Shown here piece by piece: positions 25,762 to 42,213 of a stretch of DNA of 42,997 bases. The notes under the pieces are model-generated. The model ran no database searches. It was not told the DNA's origin and worked only from the letters and a program-made list of their open reading frames with translations. Source of the stretch: a virus; the IMG/VR virus record IMGVR_UViG_3300029260_000512, positions 1 to 42,997 of that record; one strand, given 5' to 3'. Made by a program: the position numbers and the translations under genes. Within the stretch, counting starts at the first letter, position 1. Every line of letters starts with the position of its first letter.

Positions 25762-25846
25762 AAGTGAGCCACACTAAAACGCCCACCCGGTGGCTAGACC
25801 GGGCGGGCGTTACGCAACGACATAATACCAATGGGGATTAGCTATC

Positions 25847-26002
25847 ATGTCAGCAACAGAATATACCACGATTGCACGCACACCGTTAAACCAGCTGCAT
25901 ACGCTGCCGCTGCACCTGCTGTGCGCCTACCTATACCAATGCCCAGCCATCAGCCGCCGTGCGCTAGAACGCATCGTGCGTATCCATGAGGAGGTCGTAT
26001 GA
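25847..26002 (+). CDS. Small protein (51 aa), not in the ORF track
   Basis: MSATEYTTIARTPLNQ... Its stop overlaps the next ATG (ATGA). Confidence 0.35.
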   Translation: MSATEYTTIARTPLNQLHTLPLHLLCAYLYQCPAISRRALERIVRIHEEVV

Positions 26003-26298
26003 TTAATTACTTCCAAGACAACCCAATGGAGGCGCTAACGCGCCTCATTAAAGCGGCCCAAGGAGACAGCCACCAAAGCCACCACGTGCGTCGATTCCTG
26101 CTTGGTTTGTACAACGCTGAAGAATGGCCCTTTGAAATGAATCGCCTCAGGGCGCTGGATCGTCAGCTGCAAATGGCCTGCTTTCGGGTGTTAGAGCTTG
26201 ATGTCGTGACATGTGAGCGTGATATACACGAGTACCTGGAAAATGGCGGCACTATTTTTCAGCAATTCTGGCAGCAGGAAAGCGCCAGCAGTGATTGA
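25999..26298 (+). CDS. Hypothetical protein
   Basis: 99 aa. RBS GAGGAG. Followed by a strong terminator. Confidence 0.5.
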   Translation: MINYFQDNPMEALTRLIKAAQGDSHQSHHVRRFLLGLYNAEEWPFEMNRLRALDRQLQMACFRVLELDVVTCERDIHEYLENGGTIFQQFWQQESASSD

Positions 26299-26316
26299 CC
26301 TTTTAGCGGCAAGCAA

Positions 26317-26345
26317 TAGCCCGGCCAATGAGCCGGGCTATTTTT
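26317..26345 (+). terminator. Intrinsic terminator TAGCCCGGC-CAATGA-GCCGGGCTA-T5
   Basis: A 9-bp stem plus a T-run after 25999..26298. Confidence 0.8.
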
Positions 26346-26359
26346 ATGTCTGAGCAACG

Positions 26360-26451
26360 AAAAAGCCCCAATCCGGGCAGACTGGGGCTTTATGTGTATG
26401 AGGCATTGGCGTGCCTTCATACAAAGGTAAAAACCTATCGATAAAGCTAAC
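26360..26451 (-). ncRNA. Candidate ~90-nt small RNA with a CGCCAA loop
   Basis: Minus-strand promoter TTGATC (26485..26480)-16-TAATTT (26463..26458). An 11-bp stem-loop at 26395..26423 has loop CGCCAA on the minus strand (TTGGCG on the plus). The terminator is AAGCCCCA...TGGGGCTT-U5 (26390..26360). Confidence 0.35.
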
Positions 26452-26564
26452 AAGAAAAAATTAACACAATGAGCGGCAGGATCAAGCCTGTTTCCTCCTC
26501 GCATGTAATCAGGTTAATGACCTGACTAAGCAGCGGGCCGCGATTGATAACGGTATATAAAATT

Positions 26565-26588
26565 AAAAACCCCACCGGTAAGGCGGGG
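26565..26588 (-). terminator. Intrinsic terminator after the GNAT toxin gene
   Basis: The minus strand reads CCCCGCC-UUACC-GGUGGGG-U5. Confidence 0.65.
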
Positions 26589-26597
26589 TAGGTTTTG

Positions 26598-27110
26598 CTA
26601 TCGCAACGATTTAACCAGTGTCAGCTCATCGCTGGGCAAAGGCTTAAAACCGTATCGCTTATAAAAATCCACCGCATCAGGCAACGCGTTTATCATCAGG
26701 GCCACAGACCCCACTAAACGCGACTGATCGGCTGCAGTTTGCCAAGCAGCCAGTAGCAAACGGCAACCGACCCCCTTGCCTTTTAGTCGGCTATCGACGG
26801 CTAAACGCCCTAACGTGGTCACTGGAACGCTTCGGGGCATGTTCTTTTTTAACTTGCCCATCATTTTTTCGCGGTCCACTGCACCAGATGCAAGCGCAAA
26901 ATATCCTAGCACTAGCTTTGTGCCTGGGGCGCACACTACATAGACCGTAGTAGCACCACTTTGATGGTTGCCTAACGCTTCACTGGCTAAAAACTTATTT
27001 AGCGTGAACACGCCACAATCGAAGTGGCTTAGGTCGTGCTGAGGCGTTAAGAGCTCTGGGGCTGCGACGACGCCCAAATCGGTGTTTTGTTGAGAAGTTT
27101 CTGAAAGCAT
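26598..27110 (-). CDS. GNAT acetyltransferase toxin (TacT/KacT-like)
   Basis: 170 aa. HDLSHFDCG motif and acetyl-CoA site LKGKGVG. RBS GGAGGA. Paired with a DUF1778-type antitoxin. Confidence 0.8.
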   Translation of the reverse strand: MLSETSQQNTDLGVVAAPELLTPQHDLSHFDCGVFTLNKFLASEALGNHQSGATTVYVVCAPGTKLVLGYFALASGAVDREKMMGKLKKNMPRSVPVTTLGRLAVDSRLKGKGVGCRLLLAAWQTAADQSRLVGSVALMINALPDAVDFYKRYGFKPLPSDELTLVKSLR

Positions 27111-27355
27111 GGGTCCTCCGATGCTGGCTGTTTAATAGCCTCTTCGAAGAACGCGTAGTCGGTTTCATTCAGCATGTAGAATCGTCGGTTCAGCAGTACC
27201 TCTTCGGCTTTTCGACATGCGGCTTCCACCACGAAACTGGTTCGATCCCCCCCCAGCTCCGCTACGGCTCTATCGATCAAGGCGCGTTTTTTAGGGTCAA
27301 CACGCATATTGAGGGCCAGTGGCTTAGCCACTGCCTCAGCAGCTGTGCTTTTCAT
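27047..27355 (-). CDS. DUF1778 RHH antitoxin (TacA/KacA-like)
   Basis: LNMRVDPKKRALIDRAVAELGGDRTSFVVEAACRKAEEVLL is the classic DUF1778 pattern. The ORF overlaps the toxin start by 64 nt. Confidence 0.8.
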   Translation of the reverse strand: MKSTAAEAVAKPLALNMRVDPKKRALIDRAVAELGGDRTSFVVEAACRKAEEVLLNRRFYMLNETDYAFFEEAIKQPASEDPCFQKLLNKTPIWASSQPQSS

Positions 27356-27434
27356 GATGTATGTCCTATCGCTGTTTAAGGGTGTTTCGCTCCTTAGCCT
27401 TGCTCAGCAGCTTGTTGCTGCCTGCAAGGCGCGT

Positions 27435-27476
27435 TTAGTTTATGGGTTCTGTTGTGCCTTTGGTTGGGTTGGCCAT
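27435..27476 (-). CDS. 13-codon mini-ORF with a strong Shine-Dalgarno (possible leader peptide)
   Basis: AAGGAGATAACAC-ATG, translating as MANPTKGTTEPIN. It is followed by a ~12-bp hairpin, about 80 nt upstream of the antitoxin start. Confidence 0.2.
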   Translation of the reverse strand: MANPTKGTTEPIN

Positions 27477-27763
27477 GTGTTATCTCCTTGGTTTTTTAGT
27501 GATGGTTTTGCTTTTTTTGCTTTTTGCCTGTGTTGGTTGCCACGACATATAGCGCAATACATGCGGCAACAATTTCAGTATAACATATTATGTAGCTCAA
27601 ACCTACACAATGTAGCACAGAGCGTTACGTTGCTTTAGGTATTCCCTAAGCGCCCACTGGTGGCCCGCCTGATCAATCAGGCGTTTTAGCCAAAACCCCA
27701 CCCAAAACACCCACCTGCTAAACTGCCCACCCAAAACGCCCACAACACCGCCAGGGGGAACGC

Positions 27764-28411
27764 ATGTACGTCAGGGGATACCTACGCGCCAGCACGGCAG
27801 AACAGAACGCCCAGCGGGCACGCAGTACGCTAGAACACTTCGCCGCTGAACATCGCCGTGAGGTAGTGAGCTGGTATATCGAGAATGTGAGCGGCGCTAG
27901 CAGCCAGCGCCCAGAACTCAGGAGGCTTCTGGAAGATGCCAAGCAAGGTGATGTGCTGCTGATAGAATCGGTAGACCGCCTTTCCCGCCTGGGGGCGGCA
28001 GAGTGGCGGCACCTGCGGGGGCAGATTGAGGCGCTAGGGTTACGGGTGGTGTCGCTGGACCTTCCCACTAGCTACGCAGCCATGGCCATGCCCACCCAAG
28101 GCGAGGATTTTACCGCCCGCATGCTCGATGCGCTGAATACCATGATGCTAGACGTACTCGCAGCGGTAGCCCGCAAAGACTACGACGACCGGCGAACGCG
28201 CCAGCGCCAGGGGATAGAGCAAGCAAAGAAGGAAGGCAAATACCAGGGCAAGCGGCCCAACAAGGCACTACACCAGCGAATTGAAGCGCTATTGAACGCC
28301 CGCGACGGTGAAGGCAAACCGTTCACCACGGCGCGCATTTGCGAACTAGCCGGGTGCGGTGAAACCACTGTGAAAAAGGTAAAGCGGGCTATGCGCGAAA
28401 AGGCACACTAA
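27764..28411 (+). CDS. Serine recombinase (resolvase/invertase family)
   Basis: N-terminal YLRASTAEQ catalytic Ser motif, SVDRLSR, and a C-terminal HTH. Confidence 0.85.
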   Translation: MYVRGYLRASTAEQNAQRARSTLEHFAAEHRREVVSWYIENVSGASSQRPELRRLLEDAKQGDVLLIESVDRLSRLGAAEWRHLRGQIEALGLRVVSLDLPTSYAAMAMPTQGEDFTARMLDALNTMMLDVLAAVARKDYDDRRTRQRQGIEQAKKEGKYQGKRPNKALHQRIEALLNARDGEGKPFTTARICELAGCGETTVKKVKRAMREKAH

Positions 28412-28689
28412 GCGCCACGTGAACGCCGCTTTCTTACCCGGCCTTGCAGCCGTTCCCACCATTCGCCGGGTAGCCAGATCGACACCCAGCGCAATAGCAA
28501 TTCAGCCCGGCGTGTGTCCGGGTAATCGTCGGGGTAGTGGGTAAAGTCGCTGGCCAGCGCCAGCAGTTGGTCCTTGCCTTGCTGTTGCACGGCATGGTGG
28601 GCGGGATCAAACGCGGCATCCAGCAGCACGGCCAACCACGTGGCCACTTCATCGGCGTTCATTTTGCGGGGGCGGGGCATGGCGGGCAC
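28408..28689 (-). CDS. Hypothetical protein
   Basis: 93 aa, convergent with the resolvase gene. Confidence 0.35.
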   Translation of the reverse strand: MPAMPRPRKMNADEVATWLAVLLDAAFDPAHHAVQQQGKDQLLALASDFTHYPDDYPDTRRAELLLRWVSIWLPGEWWERLQGRVRKRRSRGA

Positions 28690-30889: not shown

Positions 30890-31123
30890 TTAATGCGGCT
30901 TGACCTCTTCCTCGTCATCGCTTTTTTTAGCGGCCTCTGCCAGCTCATGCCCCAACGCACCGCGAATAAACGCGATGTTGGTACTAAGCCCTTGGTGCAT
31001 CCCCTCGCACGTTAACGCCAAATACTCTAAGTGCTCCAAACAGTTAGCCAGCGTTTCCTCTGCACTCACGCCCACCAGCGGGTTTGCTTGATAGCCTTGC
31101 GTCGTTCCCTGCTGCTCGCTCAT
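30890..31123 (-). CDS. Small acidic protein in the CopB position upstream of repA
   Basis: The start MSEQQG is preceded by GGAGG. 77 aa. A LexA box lies upstream. Confidence 0.5.
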   Translation of the reverse strand: MSEQQGTTQGYQANPLVGVSAEETLANCLEHLEYLALTCEGMHQGLSTNIAFIRGALGHELAEAAKKSDDEEEVKPH

Positions 31124-31163
31124 TGTGTCGCCTCCCCGGTGCGCGTTTGCGCACACCTAAAAA

Positions 31164-31179
31164 CTGTTTATACATACAG
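31164..31179. promoter_or_regulatory. LexA (SOS) box CTGTTTATACATACAG
   Basis: A perfect CTGT-N8-ACAG with an AT-rich core. It lies 41-56 nt upstream of the 31123 start, abuts a TATGAT -10-like hexamer on the minus strand and itself contains a TATAAA. Confidence 0.65.
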
Positions 31180-31534
31180 CATCATACTACACCGCATGAC
31201 GCTATTGGAAAATTGCTAAGCGGGTTTATGCGCTTGGCCGTGATCCTACTGGGCACCGCCGCTTACCCGAAATAACGCTCAACCCAGCACACCTCTATAA
31301 AAACACGGCGCACGCGCAGGGCAAGAATCCGAGCGACTTCTATGCAGAATGGGCCGCTATCGTTTCGCCTACCCCTTTATTAAAACACGCATTCTCAAAG
31401 CGCAACCTAAAACCAAACTGATGAATTTATTCATAATCTTAGGCGCAAACAGCAGACGCTTAGGCAACATATAAGCGACACTTACCAGCAACGGCAATCA
31501 CCGCCCCGGCACCCACCTGGGCATTTTTCACGCA

Positions 31535-31556
31535 CAAAAAAACCGCTGATTAGCGG
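31535..31556 (-). terminator. Intrinsic terminator ending the late operon (CCGCT-AATC-AGCGG-T8)
   Basis: Read on the minus strand, 28 nt after the 31584 stop. Confidence 0.65.
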
Positions 31557-31583
31557 CCCGTGTGCTATTGCGCTTTGTTGCCC

Positions 31584-32165
31584 TTATACCTCCCAGCTCA
31601 GCTCCTCGATGCTGTCGATCTCGCCCGCTTGCAGCTGCGCGGCGTATCGCCCCTCTAGCGCGATCAGCGCGCTGCGCCGGTAGCCAATTTGCTCGTATGC
31701 CGCTTGCACATCGGAAACCGGGTGGTCATCGTGAAACACCCCATCCGAGTCTTTCCATCCCGTGAATGTCGTCATGTTTGCAGCGGCGGCGAATTGTAGG
31801 GATTCGTTGAGGGCTTGGCGGTTGTCGGGGTCACCTGCGTACCGAATGCCGTTGATCGTCACGCCCTGTGCTTCGGCGGCTTTGCGCTGCGGCTCGATCA
31901 GCGCGGCCAGCTCAGCCCGGCGGCGTTGCTCTTTCGCTTGCTCATCCGCTAGTAACTCGACGCTCCGCAGCTTTTGCCCACCGCTGCCAGGGTAGACCGG
32001 GCGTGGCTCACCGGGCTTCTGAACGCCCGCCCACAGTCCGGCGGGGGTAGCGTAAGCGTGAACGATGGTATCAACGGCTAACGCAGGCAGCGGGATTTGC
32101 TGCCCATCGTGCTCAAGGGCGCGCCCGTCAGGCGTAGTGACAATCTGCAAATTCGACATCGGCAA
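31584..32165 (-). CDS. DUF4376-like protein (tail fibre assembly/chaperone-like)
   Basis: The C-terminal half (INGIRYAGDPDNRQALNESL...WKDSDGVFHD...VSDVQAAYEQIGYRRSALIALEGRY) resembles the DUF4376 pattern. It is the last gene of the late operon. Confidence 0.5.
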   Translation of the reverse strand: MPMSNLQIVTTPDGRALEHDGQQIPLPALAVDTIVHAYATPAGLWAGVQKPGEPRPVYPGSGGQKLRSVELLADEQAKEQRRRAELAALIEPQRKAAEAQGVTINGIRYAGDPDNRQALNESLQFAAAANMTTFTGWKDSDGVFHDDHPVSDVQAAYEQIGYRRSALIALEGRYAAQLQAGEIDSIEELSWEV

Positions 32166-33201
32166 AATCTCTCTTCAGAGTGAGTTGGTCCACTAGGTGG
32201 TTAACGGTATTCCAGCTATCGCAGTGCTTGGCGTAAGCCAGGAAGGCGTGTAGATGTTGCTGCACTTCGTCCAGGCTGGCATCACCTCTGGTATAACGGC
32301 GCTGCAGAATTTTCAGGCGGCGTTTAAAGCGCTGAATGTTGCGCTTGCGGGGCAGTATGTGGGTGGCCCATATGCGGTAGCCGCACCAATCCACGCCCGC
32401 GCTGGCAGGGCGTACTTGGGTTTTAGGGTTGAGTGATAGACCGCGCCGCTCTAGCGCCGCTTGCAGCTGGTGTAGCCGCTGCCAGGCTTCGGCTTTGCTT
32501 GGGCAAACGATCACTATGTCATCCATATAGCGCACGTATTGCCCTGCGCCGTGGTCGTCGGTCATCTCGTGATCGACGCCATCTAGGGTGGCGTTAGCGT
32601 TTAGCTGACTGCTAAGCGCGCCAACCGGTTGTCCGATGCCGTCATCATGGCCATAGCCGCGTATCATGGCGCGCCACAGTTGCAGTGTATCTGGGCAGTC
32701 AATCGTCTGAGAAATACTGTCTAGTACGGCATCATGGGGCAGCGAGTCGAAAAACTTGCTTACGTCTGCCTGTACGACGTACACACTATCCCAGCGCCGC
32801 TTAGCCTTTCTGAGCATGCGTTGCAGAGCAAGCACCCCTGCTTGGGTACCCTTTCCCTTGCGACAGGCGTAGCTGTGATAGATAAACCTGCGCTCAAATA
32901 GTGGTTCTACCAAGTCCACCACGGCGTGATGCAGCACCCGATCTTTAAACGGTGGGGCTTGAATCATCCGCATTTTAGGCTCCAGCACCACAAACTCTCT
33001 GGCGCGGCCCGGCTGCCATGTTTTGTGAACCAAGTGGTTGTGAAGGTTTAGGAGGTTTTCTTCCAGGTTGGCGGTGTATTTCACCACCTCTGGCCGGTAG
33101 CGCTTGCGCTTTCTGGCGGCATGATAGCCGCGCATGAGGTTATCGAAATCAATAATGTCTTGATAAAGCGACACCGCATTGTCCTTATGCAGTTCGTGCA
33201 A
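32128..33201 (-). CDS. DGR reverse transcriptase
   Basis: 357 aa. YMDD catalytic box (VRYMDDIVIV). PVGALSSQLNAN matches the DGR-specific (I/L/V)GxxxSQ motif. Lies immediately downstream of the TR. Confidence 0.9.
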   Translation of the reverse strand: MHELHKDNAVSLYQDIIDFDNLMRGYHAARKRKRYRPEVVKYTANLEENLLNLHNHLVHKTWQPGRAREFVVLEPKMRMIQAPPFKDRVLHHAVVDLVEPLFERRFIYHSYACRKGKGTQAGVLALQRMLRKAKRRWDSVYVVQADVSKFFDSLPHDAVLDSISQTIDCPDTLQLWRAMIRGYGHDDGIGQPVGALSSQLNANATLDGVDHEMTDDHGAGQYVRYMDDIVIVCPSKAEAWQRLHQLQAALERRGLSLNPKTQVRPASAGVDWCGYRIWATHILPRKRNIQRFKRRLKILQRRYTRGDASLDEVQQHLHAFLAYAKHCDSWNTVNHLVDQLTLKRDFADVEFADCHYA

Positions 33202-33333
33202 AATGAAACGCGGCCACCCGTAGGCCGCCGCGCTCTATTGATGTTTCGCCGTGAAGCGAGGAAAGCCGCCCCGAGGGATGTGGCACTGCCCGCCAACCCG
33301 TAGGCGGGCGGTTTCTGGCCGGTAAAGCGGTCG

Positions 33334-33444
33334 CTCGCGAGACGCGCCCCGATGTTGCTGTTCGAGTTCGACGCCGAATTGTTGCAGTTCACGTACCAAA
33401 GCCCGGCATTCGCGCCATTGCTCCAGTTGCCGCCGACGTAGGGG
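33334..33444 (-). repeat. DGR template repeat (TR)
   Basis: 111 bp, aligned without gaps to 33900..34010. It carries 24 coding-strand adenines. It would encode nine AAC (Asn) codons in the frame that corresponds to the VR reading frame. Confidence 0.9.
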
Positions 33445-33476
33445 CACATCGAAATAAGCGACTTCCCTTTCTTGCT

Positions 33477-33890
33477 CTACTTGCTGTTACTTTGCTTGCT
33501 GCGCTCGTGGCGCAGCCAGCCACCTAATATGGAGCCAAGGTCATTGATGTGCTGCGCCCAATCACGATATTGGCCGCCGGAAATATAGCCGTAGCGCTGC
33601 GCTTTTCGCACCTTGCGGCGTAGTATCTCTATCTCAATATCCAAGTCGGTGAGGGTGGTTTTCTTCTGATAGCGCTTCCAGGCAGTGAGCGTGATCCGCT
33701 CGATACGCTCAATACACAGCCGCACCTCCGCGCTGAGCAAGTGTCGCTCACTTTTCGGAAAATTCACCAGGGCTCGACGACTGTAATCTTCCAGCTCTTC
33801 CACCTTAGTGAGCATGCCCTCAAAGGGTCGAAGGTGTTGGTACGGGGCGCTACCGCGCCCCTGAGCTTGACGCTGATTTGCCTGACTCAT
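33477..33890 (-). CDS. avd: DGR accessory variability determinant (Avd-like four-helix-bundle protein)
   Basis: 137 aa and basic. Its ATG overlaps the target gene stop (ATGA). It sits between VR and TR, as in the Bordetella phage BPP-1 DGR. Confidence 0.8.
   Translation of the reverse strand: MSQANQRQAQGRGSAPYQHLRPFEGMLTKVEELEDYSRRALVNFPKSERHLLSAEVRLCIERIERITLTAWKRYQKKTTLTDLDIEIEILRRKVRKAQRYGYISGGQYRDWAQHINDLGSILGGWLRHERSKQSNSK
33844..33861 (-). promoter_or_regulatory. GC hairpin downstream of the VR (candidate DGR target-recognition cruciform)
   Basis: GGGGCGC-(4 nt)-GCGCCCC, a 7-bp stem with a 4-nt loop. It lies 38 nt 3' of the VR end, within avd. Confidence 0.5.
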
Positions 33891-35881
33891 GACACGACCC
33901 TCGCGAGACGCGCCCCGAAGAAGCTGAACGAGGCCGACGCCGAATAGCTGCAGTACACGGACCAAAGCCCGGCAATCGCGCCACCGCTCCAGTAGCCGCC
34001 GACGAAGGGGTAATACTCCCCAGCATCACGCCACCGCACGTAGTCCGGCAGCGTGGCGGTGCTGTCGTTACTGGTTGAATAGGTGTCGGGGATAAATTCT
34101 AGCGGGGCTGAATTGCGGAACGTGATGGGGTAAGTGGCGGCACCAGCGTTAGGAACGCTCTCGCCCGTACTTTGCCACGCGCCGTTATAGTCACGCCGCT
34201 CAATGACACTATTGAGCGTACGGGCTCCGTCCATCCACTGATAGACGTTACCCCATAGCCCAACGATGCCGCGATACGTCGCTTGGGCTACGTCAGCGGC
34301 ATCGACAGCGGCGGCGCTGGACTGATTAACGCGGCCCTCGCCCGTTTTCGTTTGGCTATCCATCGTCGCGTTTTCGACCAGGTATAACCACTGAATGGCC
34401 AGCCACATGTCGTAGTGGTGCAGCCTAAAGCCAGCGACGCCGCCCACGTTACGGGCCTCGGCATCTGCCAGGAACTGCGTCAAGCTGCGCGATGCCGTTG
34501 GCGTAACGCCCGGCACAGACTGCAGCTTGCCGCCGCTGAGCGATGCCTGATACTTGCCGTACTGGAATGCGGGCACCTCAGAGCCATTGAGCAAAAACGC
34601 AGGGTGCACCTCATACCCCGCCAGCGGTTGGTCGCTAATCCACCACGCGGGGTCGCCGCCTGCGGTGCCGCGCTTTACGTAGAACTTCGGCACCTCGACC
34701 ATCGCTTGGCCGTCTACCGTCACCTCCTGCATGCCGCCGAATATCGGGTGAGCGTTAAACCAAGAGGTGCTAGGAGTGGCAATGGTTGCGCCGGTATCGT
34801 CGATATGATCCCACGTACCGCCAGGGCCGCCGGTGGCGCGCAGCGCAACACCAATGACTTGGGCAGCTAGCACAGTGACGGCCTTGGTGTAGGTTGAGGT
34901 GGCCGCGCCCTTGTCGTCCACGGCGCGCACGCTAAAGGTGGCGGCTGTGTCGTCCGTCACGTCCGGGGCGGTAACGTCGATAATCTCACCCTCCGTAATG
35001 CCGGTCATTTTGGCAAACGACAGCCCGCCCGCGTCAGTGATCTGATACGTGACCGGATCGCCGTCTGGGTCACTAGCGCCGCTGAGCGATACCTGAAACA
35101 CGCTGTTCTTGGCTGCCTGCGTCGGGGCATTGATCGTAATAGGCCCGACAGGCGGGCGATTGCCCACCACTTCTGCGCTGATCGTTTGCGGGCGGCTACG
35201 GTTGCCCGCGTCATCGTACGCCCACGCTTTAGCGGTAACCGTTGAGCCAATCGGCTCGCCCACAGTGCGCGAGAGCGTGGCGCTGCCTGCCGTGGCAGTA
35301 AACTGCTGGGTCACGCCATCCCACCATCGCACAATAAAAAACGCGATGCTGCCGCCTGTGTGACGAGAGGTGCCCGATGCCGAAACCTCCCAGCTGAACG
35401 TAGCCGCTGTTTGCGCGGCGCTGCTCAGCGCCACCTCAACGGCGGTCGTCGGTGCCTGCCAGCTAAACCCACCCTCATCATCGTCCACCGTGAGAACGTA
35501 GCCCTCATTGCCGCTCAGTGCGGGCAGTGCCAGCTCTCCCGCCGCCTGATTCGCCCAGAACTCGGCCTCATTGCGCAGGGTCTGGGTTTGGTCTCTTAGC
35601 GTATTAGCGGCCTGCGCTTGCTGCTGAGCGGTGACCGCATCGTTAGCGGCATCCTCTGCGCGCTGCTCGGCTTGACGCTGCGCCTCTTCGGCCTGCTGCC
35701 GCGCTTGGTCGGTCGCATCAAATACCAGCGCCGCCCAGGTTAGCGAGCTTTGCAGGTCTTCCGAAAACTGAGGCAGTTTGCCAAAAAACGCATTGGCCGC
35801 AGGCTCGAACGCTTCGTCACCCATTTCGCGATTCGGGGCCGGGCCGGGGTTAATGATCGTGGGGGTTTCTGGAATGCTCAT
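33887..35881 (-). CDS. DGR target: tail fibre / receptor-binding protein with C-terminal C-type-lectin (FGE-like) fold
   Basis: 664 aa. It has an N-terminal coiled-coil, a middle Ig/cadherin-like segment (DPDGDPVTYQITD) and a C-terminal GLWGNVYQWMDG...GGYWSGG...FGARLA, typical of Mtd-like CLec variable proteins. Confidence 0.85.
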   Translation of the reverse strand: MSIPETPTIINPGPAPNREMGDEAFEPAANAFFGKLPQFSEDLQSSLTWAALVFDATDQARQQAEEAQRQAEQRAEDAANDAVTAQQQAQAANTLRDQTQTLRNEAEFWANQAAGELALPALSGNEGYVLTVDDDEGGFSWQAPTTAVEVALSSAAQTAATFSWEVSASGTSRHTGGSIAFFIVRWWDGVTQQFTATAGSATLSRTVGEPIGSTVTAKAWAYDDAGNRSRPQTISAEVVGNRPPVGPITINAPTQAAKNSVFQVSLSGASDPDGDPVTYQITDAGGLSFAKMTGITEGEIIDVTAPDVTDDTAATFSVRAVDDKGAATSTYTKAVTVLAAQVIGVALRATGGPGGTWDHIDDTGATIATPSTSWFNAHPIFGGMQEVTVDGQAMVEVPKFYVKRGTAGGDPAWWISDQPLAGYEVHPAFLLNGSEVPAFQYGKYQASLSGGKLQSVPGVTPTASRSLTQFLADAEARNVGGVAGFRLHHYDMWLAIQWLYLVENATMDSQTKTGEGRVNQSSAAAVDAADVAQATYRGIVGLWGNVYQWMDGARTLNSVIERRDYNGAWQSTGESVPNAGAATYPITFRNSAPLEFIPDTYSTSNDSTATLPDYVRWRDAGEYYPFVGGYWSGGAIAGLWSVYCSYSASASFSFFGARLARVVS
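33900..34010 (-). repeat. DGR variable repeat (VR) at the 3' end of the tail-fibre gene
   Basis: There are 16 mismatches to the TR, all at TR adenines. The VR ends 11 nt before the stop codon. Confidence 0.9.
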
Positions 35882-36819
35882 GTCAGCCCTACTATATCGA
35901 GTGTGCAGTTATGAAAGTGCAGGTGCGGGTACACCAAGCGCCAGTCTTCGTAAAATCCATAAATGATGGTGGGCTCGTACTGCTCTGCCCCGATCCACAA
36001 CAGCGGCTCGGAATCCCACTTAGCCAGGTAGCGCGCCAGGGCGTTGCTGCGATTGCCGTCAACGGACACCTCGAACGACGCCAGCTTGGCGTTATCGCGC
36101 TTTAGCAGGCGCACGCGCCCAAATTCGTCGCGCACGCGACGGGAAAACGACATGATGCCGGTACTAAACCCCCAGTAGAGCAAGCCAAGATCCCGCATGC
36201 GGCCCACCACGCAAAGCCCGCAACGCACTACGTCCACCTGCGCGGGCACCGTGATCCGAATATCAGCGTTGTAGCTGGGCAGCCCGGTAAATACCGCATC
36301 AGTGTCCTGCTCTACCGGCTCAAAAAAATAGGCGTAGTAGCTGTTAATGCCGACCGTGCTGCGCAAACTGCGGGTCGTGTCGTACACCACGTCGCCTCCC
36401 GAGATCACTTCAACCCGCACTTCGTTGGCCCCCTCAATGCCCAGTAGCGCCACGGCATTAACAACACGGCCAGGGCGTATCACGAACTGCAGGCCATTAC
36501 CGCCATGCACCGGCATCGGCTCGCCAGATTCGGTAGGGTCGCCAATGATGCCGTTGAACACCGCCCACTGGTTGAGGCTGCCCACTAAGATCCATTTCTT
36601 GGGTTCTTGCTGCTCACCCTCGCTAGGCAGTACGCCCGTGACCTCTGCCACTGCCTCATAGATCTCAGTACCCTCTACCACCCTATCCCCTTGTGCGCCA
36701 TTCGCGCCGGGGCTATACGCGGCGTTTGGGTCGTACTCAGGGATAGTGTCGATAGGGGCGTTAGAGCTGACTAAGCGGTCGCCAGTGATGGGGCGCGGCT
36801 CTATCACTTTAATGCTCAT
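35878..36819 (-). CDS. Tail tip / distal tail protein, assigned by position
   Basis: 313 aa, between the tape measure and the DGR target. ATGA overlap with the next gene. Confidence 0.45.
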   Translation of the reverse strand: MSIKVIEPRPITGDRLVSSNAPIDTIPEYDPNAAYSPGANGAQGDRVVEGTEIYEAVAEVTGVLPSEGEQQEPKKWILVGSLNQWAVFNGIIGDPTESGEPMPVHGGNGLQFVIRPGRVVNAVALLGIEGANEVRVEVISGGDVVYDTTRSLRSTVGINSYYAYFFEPVEQDTDAVFTGLPSYNADIRITVPAQVDVVRCGLCVVGRMRDLGLLYWGFSTGIMSFSRRVRDEFGRVRLLKRDNAKLASFEVSVDGNRSNALARYLAKWDSEPLLWIGAEQYEPTIIYGFYEDWRLVYPHLHFHNCTLDIVGLT

Positions 36820-36822
36820 GCC

Positions 36823-39800
36823 TTACTCCATGGTTTCGCGCCGCATCCGGTCAACGGTGCTGGCAATTTTGCTAGTGTGAGACGCCGTACCTTTATTGAT
36901 CGACTTCAGCTCGCCAACCTCCTTCTCCAAGTTTTCGACGTGCTTGATGAGCTGCTGAAAGGCTTTAAGCATTTCGCCACCACCACCGCCGCTACCTGCA
37001 AAATCGCGGAACGCCTGCGCCGCCGGGGCGGGCAATACGGTTTCGCTTCGGTGCAGCTCTGCCCGGTAGCCGTCAAACGGCACCGACCACAGGCCATCGG
37101 CATGACTGCCATCTAGCTGATTGGCGTAGGTTCTTCGCAGCAGGTCAGCCGCACCTGAGCCCTGCACGGTGTGCGAGCCACCCCCAGGCGTGAAGTACGT
37201 GGCCGAATCACCGTTATCTACCACCCGGTACCCGCTGCTTGATGATGACGCGGCGCTAGCACGAGAAGCCTCTGAGGCCGCCTTTGCTGCCGATGCCGCT
37301 GACGCCGCCGCCGAGGAAATGGCCGATGAAATAGCCGACTGCAGCCCGCCGATAGCCTCACCCACGCCCAGCACGCTGCCGTTGATGCTTTCCAGCCACG
37401 CCATTTGCCCTAGCTCGTTTTCAATTTGCAGCTGTTGCTGAACCAGCATTGAGTCCAGCGACTCCATTTCGCGGGCATACTGACGCTCAGCCGCTTGCAG
37501 CTGATTTTCTAGGGCCTTTAGGGACTGCTCTTCTACGCTCACTTGCGCTTCGGCGCGCTCCTCCAGCGCCGCAATCACGTTGGCGGTTTGGTAGAAATCG
37601 CGCTGGTAATCCGTAAACGACGAGAACAATCCCTCTGAGGGCTCAGATACCACCCCCAGCGCCTGCTCTAATTGCGCAGAATCACCCAGACCGCCGCTTG
37701 CCAGCGTGGACTGCAGGTAGTCTTGAGCGGCGCGGCGTGAGGCCATGCTTTCACGTCGGCGGGCATTCAGCAGCGTATCGAGCGAGTTGCTCAGCGTGTC
37801 GGCCACTGCAGTGCTTTCCTGCATCGCCTGCTGAACGGTTGAGATGTTGGCGTTAATAGAGGCGGTCGTGGCGCGGTAGGCGTTTTCCAGAATCTGCCGC
37901 TCTGCATTGACCGCCTTTTCCACCTGCTGATACGCACTCTGCACATCACCCAATGCCCAGATATGCGACTGCAATGCTTGGTTACTCGGGTCCAGGCTAG
38001 CCAGCTCGCGGCGGCGTAGCTCTGCCGTATTGCCCTGCAGAGATAACAGCTCACGTTCCAATCCGGCCCGCTCGCGGGCAATATCCGCCATGGCGCGCAT
38101 GGATTCGGCGTTGTCATCTATCGCCTCGCCTGACTCCACCGCCGCCGCCCGCTGCTCTTCCATCGCCGCGATGTACTGCGCTAGCGGCCCATTCAGTTGC
38201 AGGATTGTTGCTAGCTGCTCTTGCCCAGCCGCGCCCATCAGCTCCAGGCTTTCGACCACGTCCCGCACGCCCTCGCGGGTGGTGGGCAGCTCGCGACCCA
38301 TGCTGGCAAACGTGCTGGAAAGATCTTCGGCAAGGTGCCGCAGCTTCTCCTCTTCGGTGTAGAACGCGTCGTAGAAACTACCCAGCGAAGCGTTCAGGTT
38401 GCCGACGCCACCCATGAGCTGCGCCATGCCATCGGCGGCGCGCATAGCCCCGGCGGCGCTGGCGTCGAACTGCAAATTAAGGCGGGCGCTATTGCTGTCG
38501 AGGAGTTGCATGGCGTTAGCGGCCTGCACCACGCGCCCGGTGATTTGCTCGGCATTCAGCCCTAGGCCGCGCAGAGACGCGGAAAAATCACCGTCGATAA
38601 CATCAACGACCGCCAATGTGCGCGTGGCAAGCTGGTTAGCGATCCCGGCGGCGTCGCTGGCGTTGAGCCGCACAGCACGCACTGCCTCTGTCATCGCGTC
38701 AAGCTCTTGTTCGCTGCCCGCCACCGCTGCCAGGGCGTTATCCATCGCGGTGATGGAGTCGAGAAATGCTGTGGCATTCTCAAATCCGCCGAACGTCTCT
38801 TCTAGTCGTGCTGTCCCCTCGTCGGTAAAGCCCACCGCGCCAAACGCTCCACGGGAAACAACACCTGAACCATAGTCTTCAAAAACACCATGACCGCGAG
38901 TGTTAGAATCAACTGTAGCCAGCTCGAATTTAGGGGCGGTTTTACCGCCACCAAACAGGCTGCTAATGCCCTTAACGATGCCGTCAGTAATGCCCAGCCC
39001 TAGCACGTTATCGACCAGCAACGCGCCACCTACCCACGGCATGGCGGCGCTGGCGGCACCCATCAGGCCACCACCGCCCGCCGCTGCCGCGCCAGCAGCT
39101 GCGCTGCCAGCAAAGCCGGTATACGTGCCGGTGGCAGCAGCAGCACCAAAGCCGCTTGCATAACCAATCGGTGCGGCGGCTGAGGCACCAAAGCCCAACG
39201 CACTACCAATGCCACTAATGGCATCGCCCACGTAGGGCAGCTTTTTAGCGCCGTTGAATAGCGAGCCCATACCGTTAAGGTTGAAGCCACCGCCGCCCCC
39301 ACCGGACATGCCGGTTACCTGCTGGCCTAACAGCCCCTGCAGTTGCCCGGTAATTTGCACCGTCAGCGGGCGCAATAGCAGCGCGTTGCCAATTTCTGCA
39401 ATGCTGCTAATCAGCAAATCCTCTAGCTGATCCATCGCGTTGCCCGCGCCGGTCAGCAGCCCCTTGAACATTTCCACGCCCGCGTCATCTAGGCGTTGGC
39501 CGGTGTTCTCCACCATGTCGTCAAGAATTTGGGCAAGGTCGTTCGTTTCTAGCGCTAGCTCGTACTGCGCTTCACGCACGCCCTCTACCATGCGGGCGTA
39601 TTGGGCCGCGCCCATTTCACCCGCTGCGTAGCGTTCGTTAATCTGTTGTAGCTCAGCAGCCAGCGCCTCCACTTTCTGCCGGTGGCTGTCGTACTTGCCC
39701 ACCAGGGCGGCGGTCTGTTTTTCGTACTCTTCGGCACCGGTAGCGGCGCGCTGGTACTGCTCAGCGCTCCAGCGCACCGCTTCGCCGTAGGCTTCTTCGC

Positions 39801-42213
39801 TAATGGTTCCTTCGGCCAAGGCGCGATCCAGCACCGCTAGGCGTTCGATGTATTCCGCGTGGTCAGCCAGAAGCGGGTCCATCTCCTGCTGAACGCCTAC
39901 CAGGGCTTTTGCTTGGGCTTCGGCGGCTTGCTGGGCGGCTTGGGCTTGGCGTTGCGCGGTGCGCTCGGCTTCCTCGGCAGCGCGGCGTGATTCGGCGGCG
40001 GCTTCCTGCTGGGCTTTGCGCTGGTCTTTCAGCGCTTCATCCTGCACGGCCAAAAATACACTAACGCCACGCAGGTAGGCGGGCACATCCTCGCCCATCG
40101 CGTCTAGTGCGCGGTTAGCCGCGCCCATAGCTGAGCCACCGTCACGGGTGGCGGCGATGCTTTCGCGTAGGCGGTCGTTGTATTTCTTCCACGCATCCAG
40201 GGTGGTAGCTGAGGGCGCGCCACCGTTGACGGCTTGGCCGCTATTCTCGGCACCTTGGGCCACATCGTTAAACGCTGTTTCAAGCGTCTGCAGCAGCCCG
40301 CCAAGCTCTTCTACCGTAATGCTGCCTTCGCTGTATTCTGCTGCCCACAAGCGAATTTGACGCAGCGCACTATCGGGAACACCTAACTGATCCTGCAAGC
40401 CATTCAGCAGCTCATCAAGGCTTTGCGCGCCGCTCTCTACCGCCTCAAATCCGGCATTCACTTCATCAAAAAACGCACGCGCTTCGGCACCGCTAGCACC
40501 CTCAAAGCCGATGCTTAACACCTCTTCGCGGATTTTAGACAGCGCGCTACGGGCTTTTTCGACTTCCTCTTGGTAGCGGTCGCCCCACTTGATCATTGCC
40601 GCCCGCTGGCTTTCCACGCTCAGCTCTTTAAAGTCCGCAATCACTGTTTCAAGCGGGGCGTTCATATCGGTTAGCGAGCTGCTAACGTCGTCGCTGCTAT
40701 CGCGGAACAGGAAAAACGCCGTAGCGGCCAGCGTGGCCACGCCAAGGGGGCCACCCACTAACGCCATTGCACCAGCCGCGCCACGGCTAACCGCCGTTAG
40801 CGTGCGCTGGGTAGCCGTGTTCGCGGCCACCGCTGCCGTGTTGGCTGTCGCGGCGGCAGTGGTGGCGGTGGTGGCCCGCGCAAGATCCACCTTAGCAGCG
40901 GATAGCGTGCGGGCACTGGCGGCGCTTTGCACTTCGGCAGCATTCAAGGCGCGCTGAGCGGCGGCAGACTGAGTAGTTAACGCCATTTCAGTACGGCGAA
41001 TTTCCGCTAACCGCGTGAGCGATTGCTGCCGCCCGGTCGCGCTAATCTGTGCTTGCAGGCGCTGGGTTTCCAGCACGCGCTCTGCGGCCATTTGCTGCTG
41101 TGTGAGCTGAATAGAGCGCAGCTGAGAAGCCGCCTGCACCTGCGCTGCCTGCGCACGCTGTGCCGCATTCGCGGCGCTATTCAATGCCGCGACGCGCTCA
41201 GCCTCGGCACGGCGGGCCGTGGCCAGCGCCGCCCCGGCTTCACGCTCGGCGGTGATGCCTGCTTGAATGGCTACGGCGCGGTCTGCCTGCACTTTTTTGA
41301 TGCTGGCCAACGCAGAAGCGCCAAGAGCGTTTACCAGCCTTACGCCCAAAACAGTGCTTAACAACACCGCGCCATTGGCAACAGATCCCACAACTTCTTC
41401 AATGCCGCCATAGGCGGAAACTACCGTTACAGCACTTTCAGATAACGACACCAGAGAGGGCGCAAGATCTACTGCAACGGTATTAGCAAAGCCAGACGCT
41501 ATTGCATTTAAATTGTTTAATGCCTGATTGGCCTCTTTAAGGCTCTCAATATCAGACTGAGAAACAGTAATTCCAAGTTGCTCAGCTAATAGAATTTGCT
41601 GTCGTAGAGCCTCAGCATTGTCATCTAAGAGGGGTATTAGCAGGCTGGCATCATTAGCCAGCGACTCCATGAAAAAGATTTTTTCGCCCTGAGTGGCAAC
41701 GTCATCAAGAGCCTTGCCAATAGCCAGCAGCTGCTGGTCTGGGCTCATGCCCATTAGCTCATCAATGTTGAGGGTCAGGCGCTCAAAAAGGTCAGCAGCC
41801 TCACCCCCGCCAGTCGCGACAAAATCACCGATTTTTTCTGATACATCTTTGAAGATGTCGCCCATCTTCCCAGCGCCAAGGTTGACGCTTTGAGCTGCAA
41901 ATTCCCACTGCTGCAGAGTTTGCAAGCTAACGCCAATGGATCGAGAAAGAGCATCTTGCTCGGCAATATTGCGGGTTTGGCTAATAGCCATAGTGGCCAT
42001 AGCAGCCGCTGAAGCAGCAGTAAACGTAGCAAGGCGCTGAGCATGCACACCAACGCTTTCGTAGCTTGACGCCATTTCCTCACTTTGCCGCTGGGCGCGC
42101 TGCATTTCCTGCGTTAATTCTGCGTTGGCCTGCTCTAAATCACGGGTGGCCTTTACGCCACTAGAACTGTCGCCCTTAATAACAAACTCAGTGGTGTATT
42201 GCTTTGACGACAT
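36823..42213 (-). CDS. Tape measure protein
   Basis: 1796 aa. It has an Ala/Gln-rich coiled-coil and an internal Gly-rich hydrophobic block (GGGGGGFNLNG...GFGASAAAPIGY...). Lies downstream of G/G-T. Confidence 0.85.
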   Translation of the reverse strand: MSSKQYTTEFVIKGDSSSGVKATRDLEQANAELTQEMQRAQRQSEEMASSYESVGVHAQRLATFTAASAAAMATMAISQTRNIAEQDALSRSIGVSLQTLQQWEFAAQSVNLGAGKMGDIFKDVSEKIGDFVATGGGEAADLFERLTLNIDELMGMSPDQQLLAIGKALDDVATQGEKIFFMESLANDASLLIPLLDDNAEALRQQILLAEQLGITVSQSDIESLKEANQALNNLNAIASGFANTVAVDLAPSLVSLSESAVTVVSAYGGIEEVVGSVANGAVLLSTVLGVRLVNALGASALASIKKVQADRAVAIQAGITAEREAGAALATARRAEAERVAALNSAANAAQRAQAAQVQAASQLRSIQLTQQQMAAERVLETQRLQAQISATGRQQSLTRLAEIRRTEMALTTQSAAAQRALNAAEVQSAASARTLSAAKVDLARATTATTAAATANTAAVAANTATQRTLTAVSRGAAGAMALVGGPLGVATLAATAFFLFRDSSDDVSSSLTDMNAPLETVIADFKELSVESQRAAMIKWGDRYQEEVEKARSALSKIREEVLSIGFEGASGAEARAFFDEVNAGFEAVESGAQSLDELLNGLQDQLGVPDSALRQIRLWAAEYSEGSITVEELGGLLQTLETAFNDVAQGAENSGQAVNGGAPSATTLDAWKKYNDRLRESIAATRDGGSAMGAANRALDAMGEDVPAYLRGVSVFLAVQDEALKDQRKAQQEAAAESRRAAEEAERTAQRQAQAAQQAAEAQAKALVGVQQEMDPLLADHAEYIERLAVLDRALAEGTISEEAYGEAVRWSAEQYQRAATGAEEYEKQTAALVGKYDSHRQKVEALAAELQQINERYAAGEMGAAQYARMVEGVREAQYELALETNDLAQILDDMVENTGQRLDDAGVEMFKGLLTGAGNAMDQLEDLLISSIAEIGNALLLRPLTVQITGQLQGLLGQQVTGMSGGGGGGFNLNGMGSLFNGAKKLPYVGDAISGIGSALGFGASAAAPIGYASGFGAAAATGTYTGFAGSAAAGAAAAGGGGLMGAASAAMPWVGGALLVDNVLGLGITDGIVKGISSLFGGGKTAPKFELATVDSNTRGHGVFEDYGSGVVSRGAFGAVGFTDEGTARLEETFGGFENATAFLDSITAMDNALAAVAGSEQELDAMTEAVRAVRLNASDAAGIANQLATRTLAVVDVIDGDFSASLRGLGLNAEQITGRVVQAANAMQLLDSNSARLNLQFDASAAGAMRAADGMAQLMGGVGNLNASLGSFYDAFYTEEEKLRHLAEDLSSTFASMGRELPTTREGVRDVVESLELMGAAGQEQLATILQLNGPLAQYIAAMEEQRAAAVESGEAIDDNAESMRAMADIARERAGLERELLSLQGNTAELRRRELASLDPSNQALQSHIWALGDVQSAYQQVEKAVNAERQILENAYRATTASINANISTVQQAMQESTAVADTLSNSLDTLLNARRRESMASRRAAQDYLQSTLASGGLGDSAQLEQALGVVSEPSEGLFSSFTDYQRDFYQTANVIAALEERAEAQVSVEEQSLKALENQLQAAERQYAREMESLDSMLVQQQLQIENELGQMAWLESINGSVLGVGEAIGGLQSAISSAISSAAASAASAAKAASEASRASAASSSSSGYRVVDNGDSATYFTPGGGSHTVQGSGAADLLRRTYANQLDGSHADGLWSVPFDGYRAELHRSETVLPAPAAQAFRDFAGSGGGGGEMLKAFQQLIKHVENLEKEVGELKSINKGTASHTSKIASTVDRMRRETME

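Follow-up and report, generated by a model that had tools for sequence, protein, structure and literature searches.

The window analyzed in this work (42,997 nt, the whole of IMG/VR virus record IMGVR_UViG_3300029260_000512) assembled as a 42.9-kb circle, with ends that overlap by 141 nt, and is a siphovirus-like element of lambda head type. Its minus strand carries the parts of a diversity-generating retroelement (DGR) in the order VR-avd-TR-Sp-RT. The target (variable protein) gene (33887..35881; 664 aa), an open reading frame located in the tail module after the tape measure gene and one small gene, contains VR at its 3′ end, and its TGA is overlapped by the ATG (ATGA) of avd, the accessory variability determinant (33477..33890; 137 aa). 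TR is intergenic, with avd on one side and the reverse transcriptase (RT) gene on the other, and the spacer (Sp) fills the interval from TR to the RT gene (32128..33201; 357 aa, TTG start).

Downstream of the RT, also on the minus strand, the last gene of the operon encodes a DUF4376 protein (31584..32159; 191-193 aa; Pfam DUF4376, 2.9e-11). The first-pass annotation had located the cassette at the late operon's 3′ end; it does lie near that end, but it is not the last unit, because the DUF4376 gene sits between the RT and a terminator-like site at 31540-31559. The first ~70 codons of this gene move with the cassette, with a mosaic border at 31953, and the C-terminal domain of its product is conserved in a Halomonas plasmid. 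The protein shares 44.5% identity with the product of the post-RT gene in contig L024; it could be associated with the fibre and is not among the known components of DGRs.

Repeat pair and adenine-only mismatches

A repeat finder identified one direct repeat pair of 111 nt (33334-33444 and 33900-34010; spacing 566; 86% identity), reproducing exactly the ungapped pair at an offset of 566 that had been described in the first-pass annotation. TR (33334..33444, minus strand) contains 24 adenines, and VR (33900..34010, minus strand) spans target codons 625-661, with the stop codon 10 nt past its end. Base-by-base, ungapped comparison yields 16 mismatches, 16/16 at positions with T on the plus strand, that is, A on the coding minus strand; 16 of the 24 TR adenines are changed in VR, 8 are kept, and no mismatch occurs at the remaining 87 non-adenine positions. 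The adenine-only pattern had been claimed with these same counts, and it withstood realignment. The probability of all 16 mismatches falling on adenines by chance is minute (hypergeometric P = 9e-14). On the coding strand the substitutions comprise ten A>T, four A>G and two A>C, and a 55-nt core of the repeat with its adenines masked has exactly two matches in the window, against zero occurrences expected from 100 shuffles.

Retranslation returned the same TR/VR peptide pair as initially proposed. Among the 14 in-frame TR codons with adenine, 12 are altered in VR and the remaining two are AGC. Nine changed Asn codons had been reported, all of them as AAC; the number stands, but the set comprises six AAC and three AAT codons. 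No stop codon can be reached through adenine substitution in TR, and the accessible diversity amounts to ~3.9e13 protein variants (2.8e14 DNA variants).

Protein components, spacer RNA and cis elements

Profile searches match the 137-aa protein, previously described as Avd-like, to Pfam bAvd (7.9e-19) and to the NCBIfam DivGenRetAVD model (80.0 bits, for a cut-off of 80 bits); a phmmer comparison with bAvd in PDB gave no match. The RT (Pfam RVT_1, 3.4e-24) presents the YMDD motif and, as VGALSSQ, the VGxxxSQ motif of the DGR-type enzyme noted earlier, and its nearest solved relative is bRT.

The target protein belongs to PHROG 5302, 'tail protein' (7e-40), and has no match in Pfam or NCBIfam, FGE-sulfatase included. 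Its AF2 model (pLDDT 84.7) predicts an N-terminal helical/coiled-coil region, FN3/Ig-like domains at ~145-350 and a C-type-lectin-fold domain at ~380-664 with VR at the end. The C-terminal domain finds its best Foldseek match in TaqVP (5e-14, prob 1.0, TM 0.51 normalised to the target), to which the protein also shows a weak phmmer match (5vf4; 1.2e-5) that includes the VR segment, so that the C-type-lectin fold proposed from the letters alone is supported by the AF2 model together with this weak match. The middle region yields Foldseek matches to FN3 domains, the lambda central tail fibre among them. The tape measure gene is separated from the target by the gene for a 313-aa protein (35878..36819, minus strand; PHROG 6278, unknown function), a possible distal-tail or tail-tip protein as judged from gene context.

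The spacer RNA region (33202..33333, minus strand) was folded with RNAalifold using 8 relatives and compared with the features described by Handa et al. 2024. The predicted structure includes a UACG-capped stem-loop (33289-33311), a segment expected to form pairs with the 3′ end of TR (~33260-33278), one small hairpin and, at the end, a terminator-like hairpin with a UACG cap, immediately 5′ of the RT start codon (33210-33228). Covariation supports this fold, with 90.7% of cells paired and 14 pairs showing double changes, against no equally good structure in 500 shuffles and 40-54% pairing in slid controls. No equivalent of the priming adenosine Sp A56 can be mapped by alignment to BPP-1, because BPP-1 aligns poorly across the spacer.

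Two candidate cis elements were located on the minus strand. At the 3′ end of VR, comparison with BPP-1 suggests a GC-rich IMH-like element, GGGGCGCGTCTCGCGAG (33900..33916), with an identical copy in TR at 33334-33350; BPP-1 has ATCGGGGCGCG in common at this position. Directly past the element the VR and TR flanks show no similarity, which would be the equivalent of IMH versus IMH*. The second is a putative DNA hairpin or cruciform, GGGGCGC-GGTA-GCGCCCC (33844..33861), with a 7-bp GC stem and a 4-nt loop fitting the GRNA consensus, placed 38 nt downstream of the TR/VR homology end, within avd codons ~10-15. Compensatory changes maintain its stem in relatives (GGGGCGT-GATA-ACGCCCC and GCGGCC-GGTA-GGCCGC; in BPP-1, CGGGGCC-GAAA-GGCCCCG). 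The function of the IMH-like element (Guo et al. 2011, PMC3240598) and the role of the hairpin (PMC3240598) would follow those established for BPP-1.

The cassette resembles the prototype BPP-1 DGR (mtd-avd-TR-brt) in its identical gene order and strand logic, VR-TR offset (566 nt here, 556 nt in BPP-1), full-length alignment of the RT with bRT (4.2e-49), the AACATCGGGGCGCG shared by both TR 3′ ends, a GC-rich hairpin with a GRNA loop downstream of VR, a spacer with UACG-capped stem-loops, a C-type-lectin-fold target and an AAY-rich TR. It differs in having a shorter TR (111 against 134 nt), no partial IMH/IMH* homology past the GC element, a hairpin 38 nt from the homology end and inside avd rather than within a few bases of the annotated VR (21-bp IMH element included), an avd start overlapping the target stop codon, and a 664-aa target with FN3 domains instead of the 381-aa Mtd; the phage itself is siphovirus-like, with lambda-type head genes and a probable Halomonadaceae host, whereas BPP-1 is a podovirus. 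The only GenBank phage parts matching the cassette at the DNA level are the TRs of VHML, VP585 and ACA1, P2-like phages of marine Vibrio and Pseudoalteromonas (77-82% identity), with no nucleotide similarity outside TR. They share the target-avd-TR-RT order, but are myoviruses with P2-type baseplates whose targets, unlike the one in the window, carry a recognisable FGE/SUMF1-type annotation. TaqVP, the variable protein of a Thermus aquaticus DGR (PDB 5VF4), is only ~19-20% identical to the target despite being its best structural match, is chromosomal and non-phage, and lacks the coiled-coil and FN3 extension.

Natural variation and competing explanations

An RT-based search, not conditioned on VR, and an A-masked pattern search retrieved the same five close IMG/VR relative contigs. 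TR is identical to that of the window (111/111) in four of the five and VR differs in every one; TR is again 111/111 identical in contigs L029, L032 and L033, with flanks up to 15.6% diverged. Relatives with 3.6-15.6% different target and avd flanks present no differences across 275 nt that comprise the avd-TR gap, TR and spacer (0/132 differences in the spacer of relatives with avd 9-16% different), and their VRs differ at adenine sites only. Four cluster members are 100% identical across 628 non-VR residues and show 1-10 differences among 36 VR residues, every one at an adenine-containing TR codon, and contigs from sister samples, three versions of one phage over 5,936 nt, differ at 13 sites (all VR), at 7 VR sites plus 1 in RT, and at 15 VR sites plus 1 in RT. 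One relative contig holds an exception, a synonymous, non-adenine T>G difference in VR. Natural VR turnover is thus observed in relatives with the same TR and cassettes ~93-96% identical to that of the window; since near-identical phages of other samples differ almost only in VR, it argues that the DGR is recently active.

This turnover evidence comes from relatives of the contig, and the RT has a TTG start with a terminator-like hairpin ahead, which might mean low RT expression. The cassette could accordingly be a recently inactivated fossil recording past activity, but we regard this as very improbable: every ORF is intact, catalytic motifs are present, relatives with VR turnover between isogenic genomes have exactly the same TR, spacer and cis elements, and VR equals TR at 87/87 non-adenine positions, so that no drift has occurred since the last homing event. 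That the RT belongs to a retron, group II intron or defence-associated system (DRT), with the repeats an unrelated duplication, has a negligible chance of being correct. The RVT_1 domain is generic, and weak scores below threshold came from the Drt2-5 models, from retron St85 (42 bits where 235 are required) and from group II (136.6 bits where 300 are required). Yet all NCBIfam group II, retron and DRT scores fall far under the curated cut-offs, the best PDB match is bRT (8ub7_A; 4.2e-49, 170.8 bits), ahead of the best group II RT (5.2e-24, 88.3 bits), an Rfam search found no intron RNA or retron family, avd adjoins the RT gene, and an unrelated duplication cannot yield 16/16 adenine-only mismatches by chance. 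Granting a genuine DGR, its target might instead be another virion or surface protein, with an outcome other than tropism switching. The target lacks any curated family match, and the tail-tip module is unusually small, with just the 313-aa protein (AF2 pLDDT 69) between tape measure and target, no recognisable hub or Tal protein and only weak Foldseek matches for that protein (E≥5e-3; tail-tube folds of Mu baseplate, lambda tail tip and GTA). This reading appears improbable given the gene's position directly past the tape measure region, the PHROG assignment, and a fibre-like layout of coiled coil, FN3 and C-type lectin. In addition, the same C-terminal module is fused in an unrelated phage, L006, to an N-terminus matching PHROG tail-fibre families (8e-18), the N-terminal ~235 aa are phage-specific and the distal part is exchanged, as is typical of fibres, and the homologous targets in VHML and ACA1 either bear an antireceptor annotation or lie among tail-fibre genes. 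From synteny and homology, we infer a tail fibre and a tropism-switching DGR.

The nature of the element is a separate question. Its lambda-type head genes (gpD, gpE-like major capsid protein, TerL and portal) bear out the lambda-like siphovirus initially claimed, and its host is probably a member of the Halomonadaceae. The plasmid replicon that had also been claimed is backed by genes for a RepA homologue, ParA and TacAT. That the element is just the genome of an integrating prophage or of a phage in the lytic cycle is nonetheless conceivable, if unlikely: it encodes a tyrosine recombinase of 422 aa (Phage_integrase), the circular assembly with its overlap could equally derive from a lambda-type genome that is circularised or concatemeric, and one cluster member lies on a 74-kb contig. 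Against it, annotated RepA proteins of Aeromonas plasmids share 42-54% identity with the RepA-like protein, ParA and a TacA/GNAT toxin-antitoxin pair are encoded, and most relatives assemble as ~37-44 kb contigs. Moreover, a syntenic relative is a complete circular plasmid of cultured Halomonas qaidamensis XH36 (NZ_CP080628.1; 45.8 kb; ~75-80% nucleotide identity over ~24 kb), which shares lambda-type head genes, the same integrase, S24 repressor, RdgC, ORF6N, ParA and RepA (84% aa) and makes a phage-plasmid plausible on synteny and homology. A DGR occupies the corresponding place in this plasmid too, and its TR and VR likewise differ at 16 sites, all of them TR adenines. The two DGRs are not orthologs, however: identity is 31% for the RT and 28% for Avd, the plasmid TR is unrelated and has 99 nt, and the plasmid target has 349 aa. 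The five genes of the plasmid's tail-tip module show no similarity to the two in the window. VHML, a member of the VP882 phage-plasmid community (PMC7969092), provides an earlier case of a DGR in a phage-plasmid.

Proposed mechanism

We conclude with high confidence that the locus is a complete BPP-1-type DGR, carried in the last part of the late operon by a temperate phage of Halomonadaceae and diversifying the VR of its target. It is a standard BPP-1/VHML-type phage DGR: a further instance of a system already well known, rather than a novel type. Following the BPP-1 literature for priming, retrohoming and tropism switching, transcription would cover the avd-TR-spacer region, probably along with the late operon, and the structured spacer RNA would be bound by the RT and the Avd barrel. 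Pairing of the spacer with the TR 3′ end would allow self-priming, and the RT would then make TR cDNA with misincorporation opposite adenines only. The GC-rich, IMH-like end common to TR and VR, together with the GC hairpin past VR, would direct this cDNA to the 3′ end of the target gene, where it would replace VR. As many as 15 codons, including the nine for Asn (AAY), would be randomised as a result; their residues would lie on the face that binds ligand in a C-type-lectin-fold domain, located distally on a tail fibre or receptor-binding protein, and the phage would gain access to ~4e13 possible variants with an intact scaffold and no stop codons.

Repeat pair, reverse transcriptase, accessory protein and target

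The window contains a single 111-nt direct repeat pair, composed of a template repeat (TR, 33334-33444) and a variable repeat (VR, 33900-34010) spaced by 566 nt, and a base-by-base comparison upholds the adenine-only mismatches reported in the first-pass annotation. All 16 mismatches (16/16) fall where TR has a T on the plus strand, that is, an A on the coding minus strand, leaving 8 of the 24 TR adenines unchanged, and realignment yielded no mismatch at any of the remaining positions (0/87); the chance of all 16 falling on adenines is P = 9e-14 (hypergeometric). With its adenines masked, the repeat core is found at exactly two places in the window and in none of 100 shuffles, and a search of the window with this core for a second VR found none, indicating that there is one VR. 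It spans codons 625-661 of the 664 in the target gene. Among the in-frame adenine-containing TR codons, 12 of 14 are altered, namely each of the nine for Asn, the two TAC codons and the ATC codon; this agrees with the codon changes previously described, except that the Asn codons are six AAC and three AAT, not nine AAC. No stop codon can be reached by adenine substitution, and some 3.9e13 protein variants are accessible. TR itself is non-coding and occupies part of the intergenic stretch separating avd from the gene for the reverse transcriptase (RT), whose start is 133 nt further downstream.

The RT gene (32128-33201, minus strand) is a 357-aa ORF with a TTG start, an RVT_1 domain and the motifs YMDD and VGALSSQ. 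Its best solved relative is bRT, the RT of the prototype diversity-generating retroelement (DGR) of Bordetella phage BPP-1, which aligns over its full length (8ub7_A; E = 4.2e-49, 170.8 bits), versus 5.2e-24 and 88.3 bits for the best group II RT in the PDB, and its scores lie far under the curated NCBIfam cut-offs for group II, retron and DRT models. The possibility that the RT is of retron or group II type was considered and dropped, since the match to bRT is far stronger and the curated models stay below cut-off. Sequence comparison thus points to an RT of the DGR clade and not to a group II, retron or DRT enzyme. The avd gene (33477-33890, minus strand) is a 137-aa ORF with an ATG overlapping the TGA of the target gene; its product matches Pfam bAvd (7.9e-19) and the NCBIfam equivalog DivGenRetAVD at 80.0 bits, exactly at the cut-off of 80, and a phmmer search of the PDB returned nothing relevant and no match to bAvd.

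The target (33887-35881, minus strand; 664 aa) carries VR at its 3′ end and has no match in Pfam or NCBIfam, FGE-sulfatase being undetected, so that its fold was determined with AF2 and Foldseek. It matches PHROG 5302 ‘tail protein’ (7e-40) and, weakly by phmmer, PDB 5vf4, the Thermus aquaticus DGR variable protein TaqVP. The AF2 model, built from 48 homologues, reaches a pLDDT of 84.7 overall and >90 across the C-terminal domain, and is laid out as an N-terminal helical region followed by FN3/Ig-like domains and the C-terminal domain, for which TaqVP is the top Foldseek match (5e-14, prob 1.0). The modelled target is hence predicted to display VR on a C-type-lectin scaffold. These results bear out the three protein assignments of the first-pass annotation: a DGR-type RT through its bRT match, motifs and sub-cut-off rival models, an Avd-like gene through Pfam and NCBIfam, and a CLec-fold target through structure prediction. 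That the cassette is a genuine DGR is well supported, all the defining features tested having been found.

The tail-tip module adjoining the target is unusually small: a 313-aa protein (35878-36819) is all that separates the target from the 1796-aa tape measure, and none of the genes in the tail module of the window could be recognised as hub, Tal or gpJ-like. The 313-aa protein, whose family is unknown, has no match by sequence in the PDB, and its AF2 model, of middling quality (pLDDT 69), gives weak Foldseek matches to tail-tube-fold proteins (E≥5e-3).

Turnover of the variable repeat in natural relatives

Two IMG/VR searches, one with the adenine-masked pattern and the other RT-based and independent of VR, retrieved the same five close relatives, four of which have a TR identical to that of the window (111/111). 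The VRs of these relatives differ from one another at 10-15 sites, every one a TR adenine position. Relative to the window, the target upstream of VR and avd diverge by 3.6-15.6%, the 275 nt covering the avd-TR gap, TR and the spacer show no differences, and VR differences are confined to adenine sites. A conserved TR thus keeps overwriting VR, whose non-adenine sites are homogenised to TR as the flanks diverge.

In the target’s 90% protein cluster, where P0071 is the window’s own protein, four other members show 100% identity across the 628 non-VR residues and differ at 1-10 of 36 VR residues, with all 13 variable VR residues (13/13) mapping to adenine-containing TR codons. Isogenic contigs from sister samples of one study, compared over 5,936 nt of DNA, differ by 13 VR sites, by 7 VR sites and 1 RT site, and by 15 VR sites and 1 RT site, with TR identical throughout. 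Close relatives carrying the window’s TR therefore provide direct natural evidence of mutagenic retrohoming in this lineage.

Two irregular repeats were noted among the relatives. The VR of one contig that shares the window’s TR (L032; ERZ23487420 scaffold_1330) has one non-adenine difference from TR, a synonymous CTT>CTG, the rest being adenine-only; ordinary mutation, a mistake in sequencing or a rare error at a non-adenine base might each account for it. On a 5.6-kb contig (L002; IMGVR_UViG_3300003702_000891), the ‘TR’ at 1514-1624 is chimeric, its 3′ half bearing the substitutions of the contig’s own VR. Conversion of TR by VR could conceivably generate such a repeat, and the contig is otherwise identical over 2,274 nt to its sister-sample counterpart (L019), from which it departs by 7 mismatches and one gap, the two TRs differing at 7 positions; we regard the chimeric TR as probably a repeat-induced assembly chimera.

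Putative cis-acting elements and the spacer RNA

TR and VR share the 3′ end GGGGCGCGTCTCGCGAG, beyond which their flanks are unrelated, and BPP-1 has ATCGGGGCGCG in common with them at the equivalent place. A hairpin, GGGGCGC-GGTA-GCGCCCC (33844-33861, minus strand), lies 38 nt downstream of VR, inside avd. Its loop agrees with the GRNA consensus needed for target recognition in BPP-1 (Guo et al. 2011, PMC3240598), although the spacing from VR is unlike that of the BPP-1 hairpin. Relatives keep the hairpin with altered, compensatorily changed stems (GGGGCGT-GATA-ACGCCCC and GCGGCC-GGTA-GGCCGC), and Vibrio phage 1F273_PE002 has CTGCGC-GGTA-GCGCAG. By analogy with BPP-1, VR thus ends in a GC-rich IMH-like sequence and is followed by a GC hairpin with a GRNA loop, both with putative roles.

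The TR 3′ end and the spacer (Sp) that separates it from the RT gene were aligned from 8 relatives belonging to 2-3 clades, and structure was predicted with RNAalifold. The prediction comprises a long-range helix in which the TR 3′ end pairs with spacer sequence ~60 nt downstream (about 33325-33345 with 33260-33278), carrying double compensatory changes (GCGAG:CUCGG to GCAAA:UUUGG), as well as UACG-capped stem-loops and a terminal hairpin just ahead of the RT start. Within this predicted structure 90.7% of cells pair and 14 pairs are changed on both sides, compared with 40-54% pairing in slid controls and 0/500 shuffles matching the observed values, the same 8-sequence alignment having yielded both the structure and its covariation test. 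When the whole TR+Sp RNA is folded by minimum free energy (MFE), it does no better than shuffles (z = -0.7), so that the spacer RNA signal comes from comparative analysis alone. The predicted helix and UACG stem-loops resemble the spacer RNA of the Handa et al. 2024 preprint, and we infer that TR-3′/Sp pairing may serve cis-priming in the window; no equivalent of the priming adenosine (A56) could be mapped in the window spacer, where BPP-1 aligns poorly.

No Rfam family covers the DGR RNA of the window, which has no tRNA genes. A promoter scan of 31000-36900 found no sigma-70-like site, and no dedicated DGR promoter is therefore proposed. A UACG-capped hairpin at 33210-33228 is followed by the terminator-like GTTTCATTTT, ending 8 nt before the TTG start of the RT. 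The RT frame is open from the start of TR to a TAG at 33235-33237, and in relatives gene callers give a 439-aa ‘RT’ running through TR.

BPP-1 is the closest system for architecture, RT and cis elements, sharing the order VR-avd-TR-spacer-RT with a VR-TR offset of 556 nt, against 566 nt in the window. The only GenBank phage sequences matching the cassette at the DNA level are the marine DGR TRs of VHML, VP585 and ACA1; when GenBank phages and PLSDB plasmids were searched by blastn, the cassette gave just short TR matches and one distant RT, and for the head region the matches, to Pseudomonas, Ralstonia and Bordetella phages, stood at only 68-72%. Across the GenBank phages and PLSDB plasmids covered by blastn, no named close relative of the window phage was found.

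Plausible phage-plasmid context and cassette exchange

Positions 1-141 are repeated exactly at 42857-42997, indicating a circular assembly with a unique length of ~42,856 bp (~42.86 kb), and the late operon crosses the circular junction. The window encodes lambda-type TerL, portal, ClpP-type protease, gpD decoration and major capsid proteins, along with a DUF1441 protein, lysozyme, a tail-completion protein and the tape measure (36823-42213). The lambda-type head genes and the lack of a sheath-sized gene in the window point to a lambda-head phage of probable siphovirus-like morphology. A 219-aa WYL-domain protein (42301-42960; 8.7e-5) is encoded among the tail genes, immediately upstream of the one for the tape measure. 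Homologues of the target are found in Halomonas, Vreelandella, Bisbaumannia and Terasakiispira, which makes a member of the Halomonadaceae the probable host.

Lysogeny and plasmid genes include an S24 CI-like repressor, RdgC, an ORF6N antirepressor, ParA, a TacA/GNAT toxin-antitoxin pair, a resolvase, a tyrosine recombinase and a 354-aa RepA homologue with 42-54% identity to annotated Aeromonas plasmid RepA and 84% to a protein of the Halomonas qaidamensis XH36 plasmid. Rfam places c4-a1b1 target, isrK and C4 antisense RNA at 23252-24284 (68, 57 and 64 bits, above gathering scores), directly upstream of the ORF6N (KilA-C-type antirepressor) gene and overlapping its start; a phage with a lambda-type head thus has an antisense immunity module in the style of P1/P7. 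At 26598-27355, beside the ParA/RepA region, the genes for a GNAT acetyltransferase (170 aa) and a TacA1-like antitoxin (102 aa) overlap, forming a TacAT-type toxin-antitoxin pair that would fit plasmid addiction.

As judged from gene content, one replicon thus combines a phage gene set with plasmid replication and partition genes, and a phage-plasmid reading is plausible. Such a context has precedent, since VHML is classed in a phage-plasmid community (PMC7969092) and DGRs have long been known on phages and plasmids (PMC5758913). The element, which also encodes an integrase, might instead integrate. Its syntenic relative, the 45.8-kb H. qaidamensis XH36 plasmid (NZ_CP080628.1), which has ~75-80% nucleotide identity over ~24 kb, is a closed circular plasmid, which bears indirectly on possible maintenance outside the chromosome. 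The XH36 plasmid, which also has a longer WYL-domain homologue at the corresponding position, carries its own DGR at the same locus (25638-28420), not annotated as such in the record. This DGR is non-orthologous to that of the window (RT, 25638-26696, 31% identity; Avd, 26960-27319, a four-helix bundle, 28% identity); its 99-nt TR (26863-26961), unrelated in sequence to the window TR, differs from its VR (27395-27493) by 16 adenine-only mismatches, its target has 349 aa, and the tail-tip genes are unrelated to those of the window.

Homology between the window and several otherwise unrelated viral contigs begins or ends at two points, 31953 and 35111-35176, and four contigs (L006, L007, L008 and L012) share only 31953-35176, at 74-93% identity and without flank similarity. 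The junctions fall inside the target gene (~codon 235-257) and inside the DUF4376 gene after the RT (~codon 70), whose N-terminus is linked to the cassette and whose C-terminus to the backbone; a terminator-like site (31540-31559) follows that gene. The ~3.2-kb shared unit holds the distal half of the fibre, with its FN3 and C-type-lectin parts, together with avd, TR, spacer, RT and the first ~70 DUF4376 codons. In L006 the distal module is joined to an N-terminus matching PHROG tail-fibre families, which supports the tail-fibre assignment of the target, and neighbours an internal virion protein gene and more tail-fibre genes. With common junctions in unrelated contigs, distal fibre and DGR behave as a ~3.2-kb recombination module that moves as one. 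We consider it possible, if rather unlikely, that 31953-35176 is a self-contained portable ‘tropism module’ that enters unrelated phages by recombination at these two junctions, here replaced a non-orthologous DGR and, if episomal, diversifies VR in lysogeny. Its recipients would include the lambda-head phage-plasmid of the window as well as a phage that has genes for tail fibres and an internal virion protein, and the DGR would diversify VR during the plasmid prophage state; were this so and the element episomal, a single lysogen lineage could pre-stock many receptor specificities.

The finding leaves the understanding of how DGRs work unchanged; what it contributes is a well-documented DGR in a temperate phage of the Halomonadaceae that resembles a phage-plasmid. 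Unusually for a result obtained by computation, public assemblies hold natural isogenic variants differing almost only at adenine-templated VR positions, which shows that the system is active in the environment. With its syntenic plasmid and own DGR, the cultured H. qaidamensis XH36 could make this lineage a tractable marine or halophile model in which to study DGR dynamics, how phages swap cassettes and diversification in episomal lysogeny.
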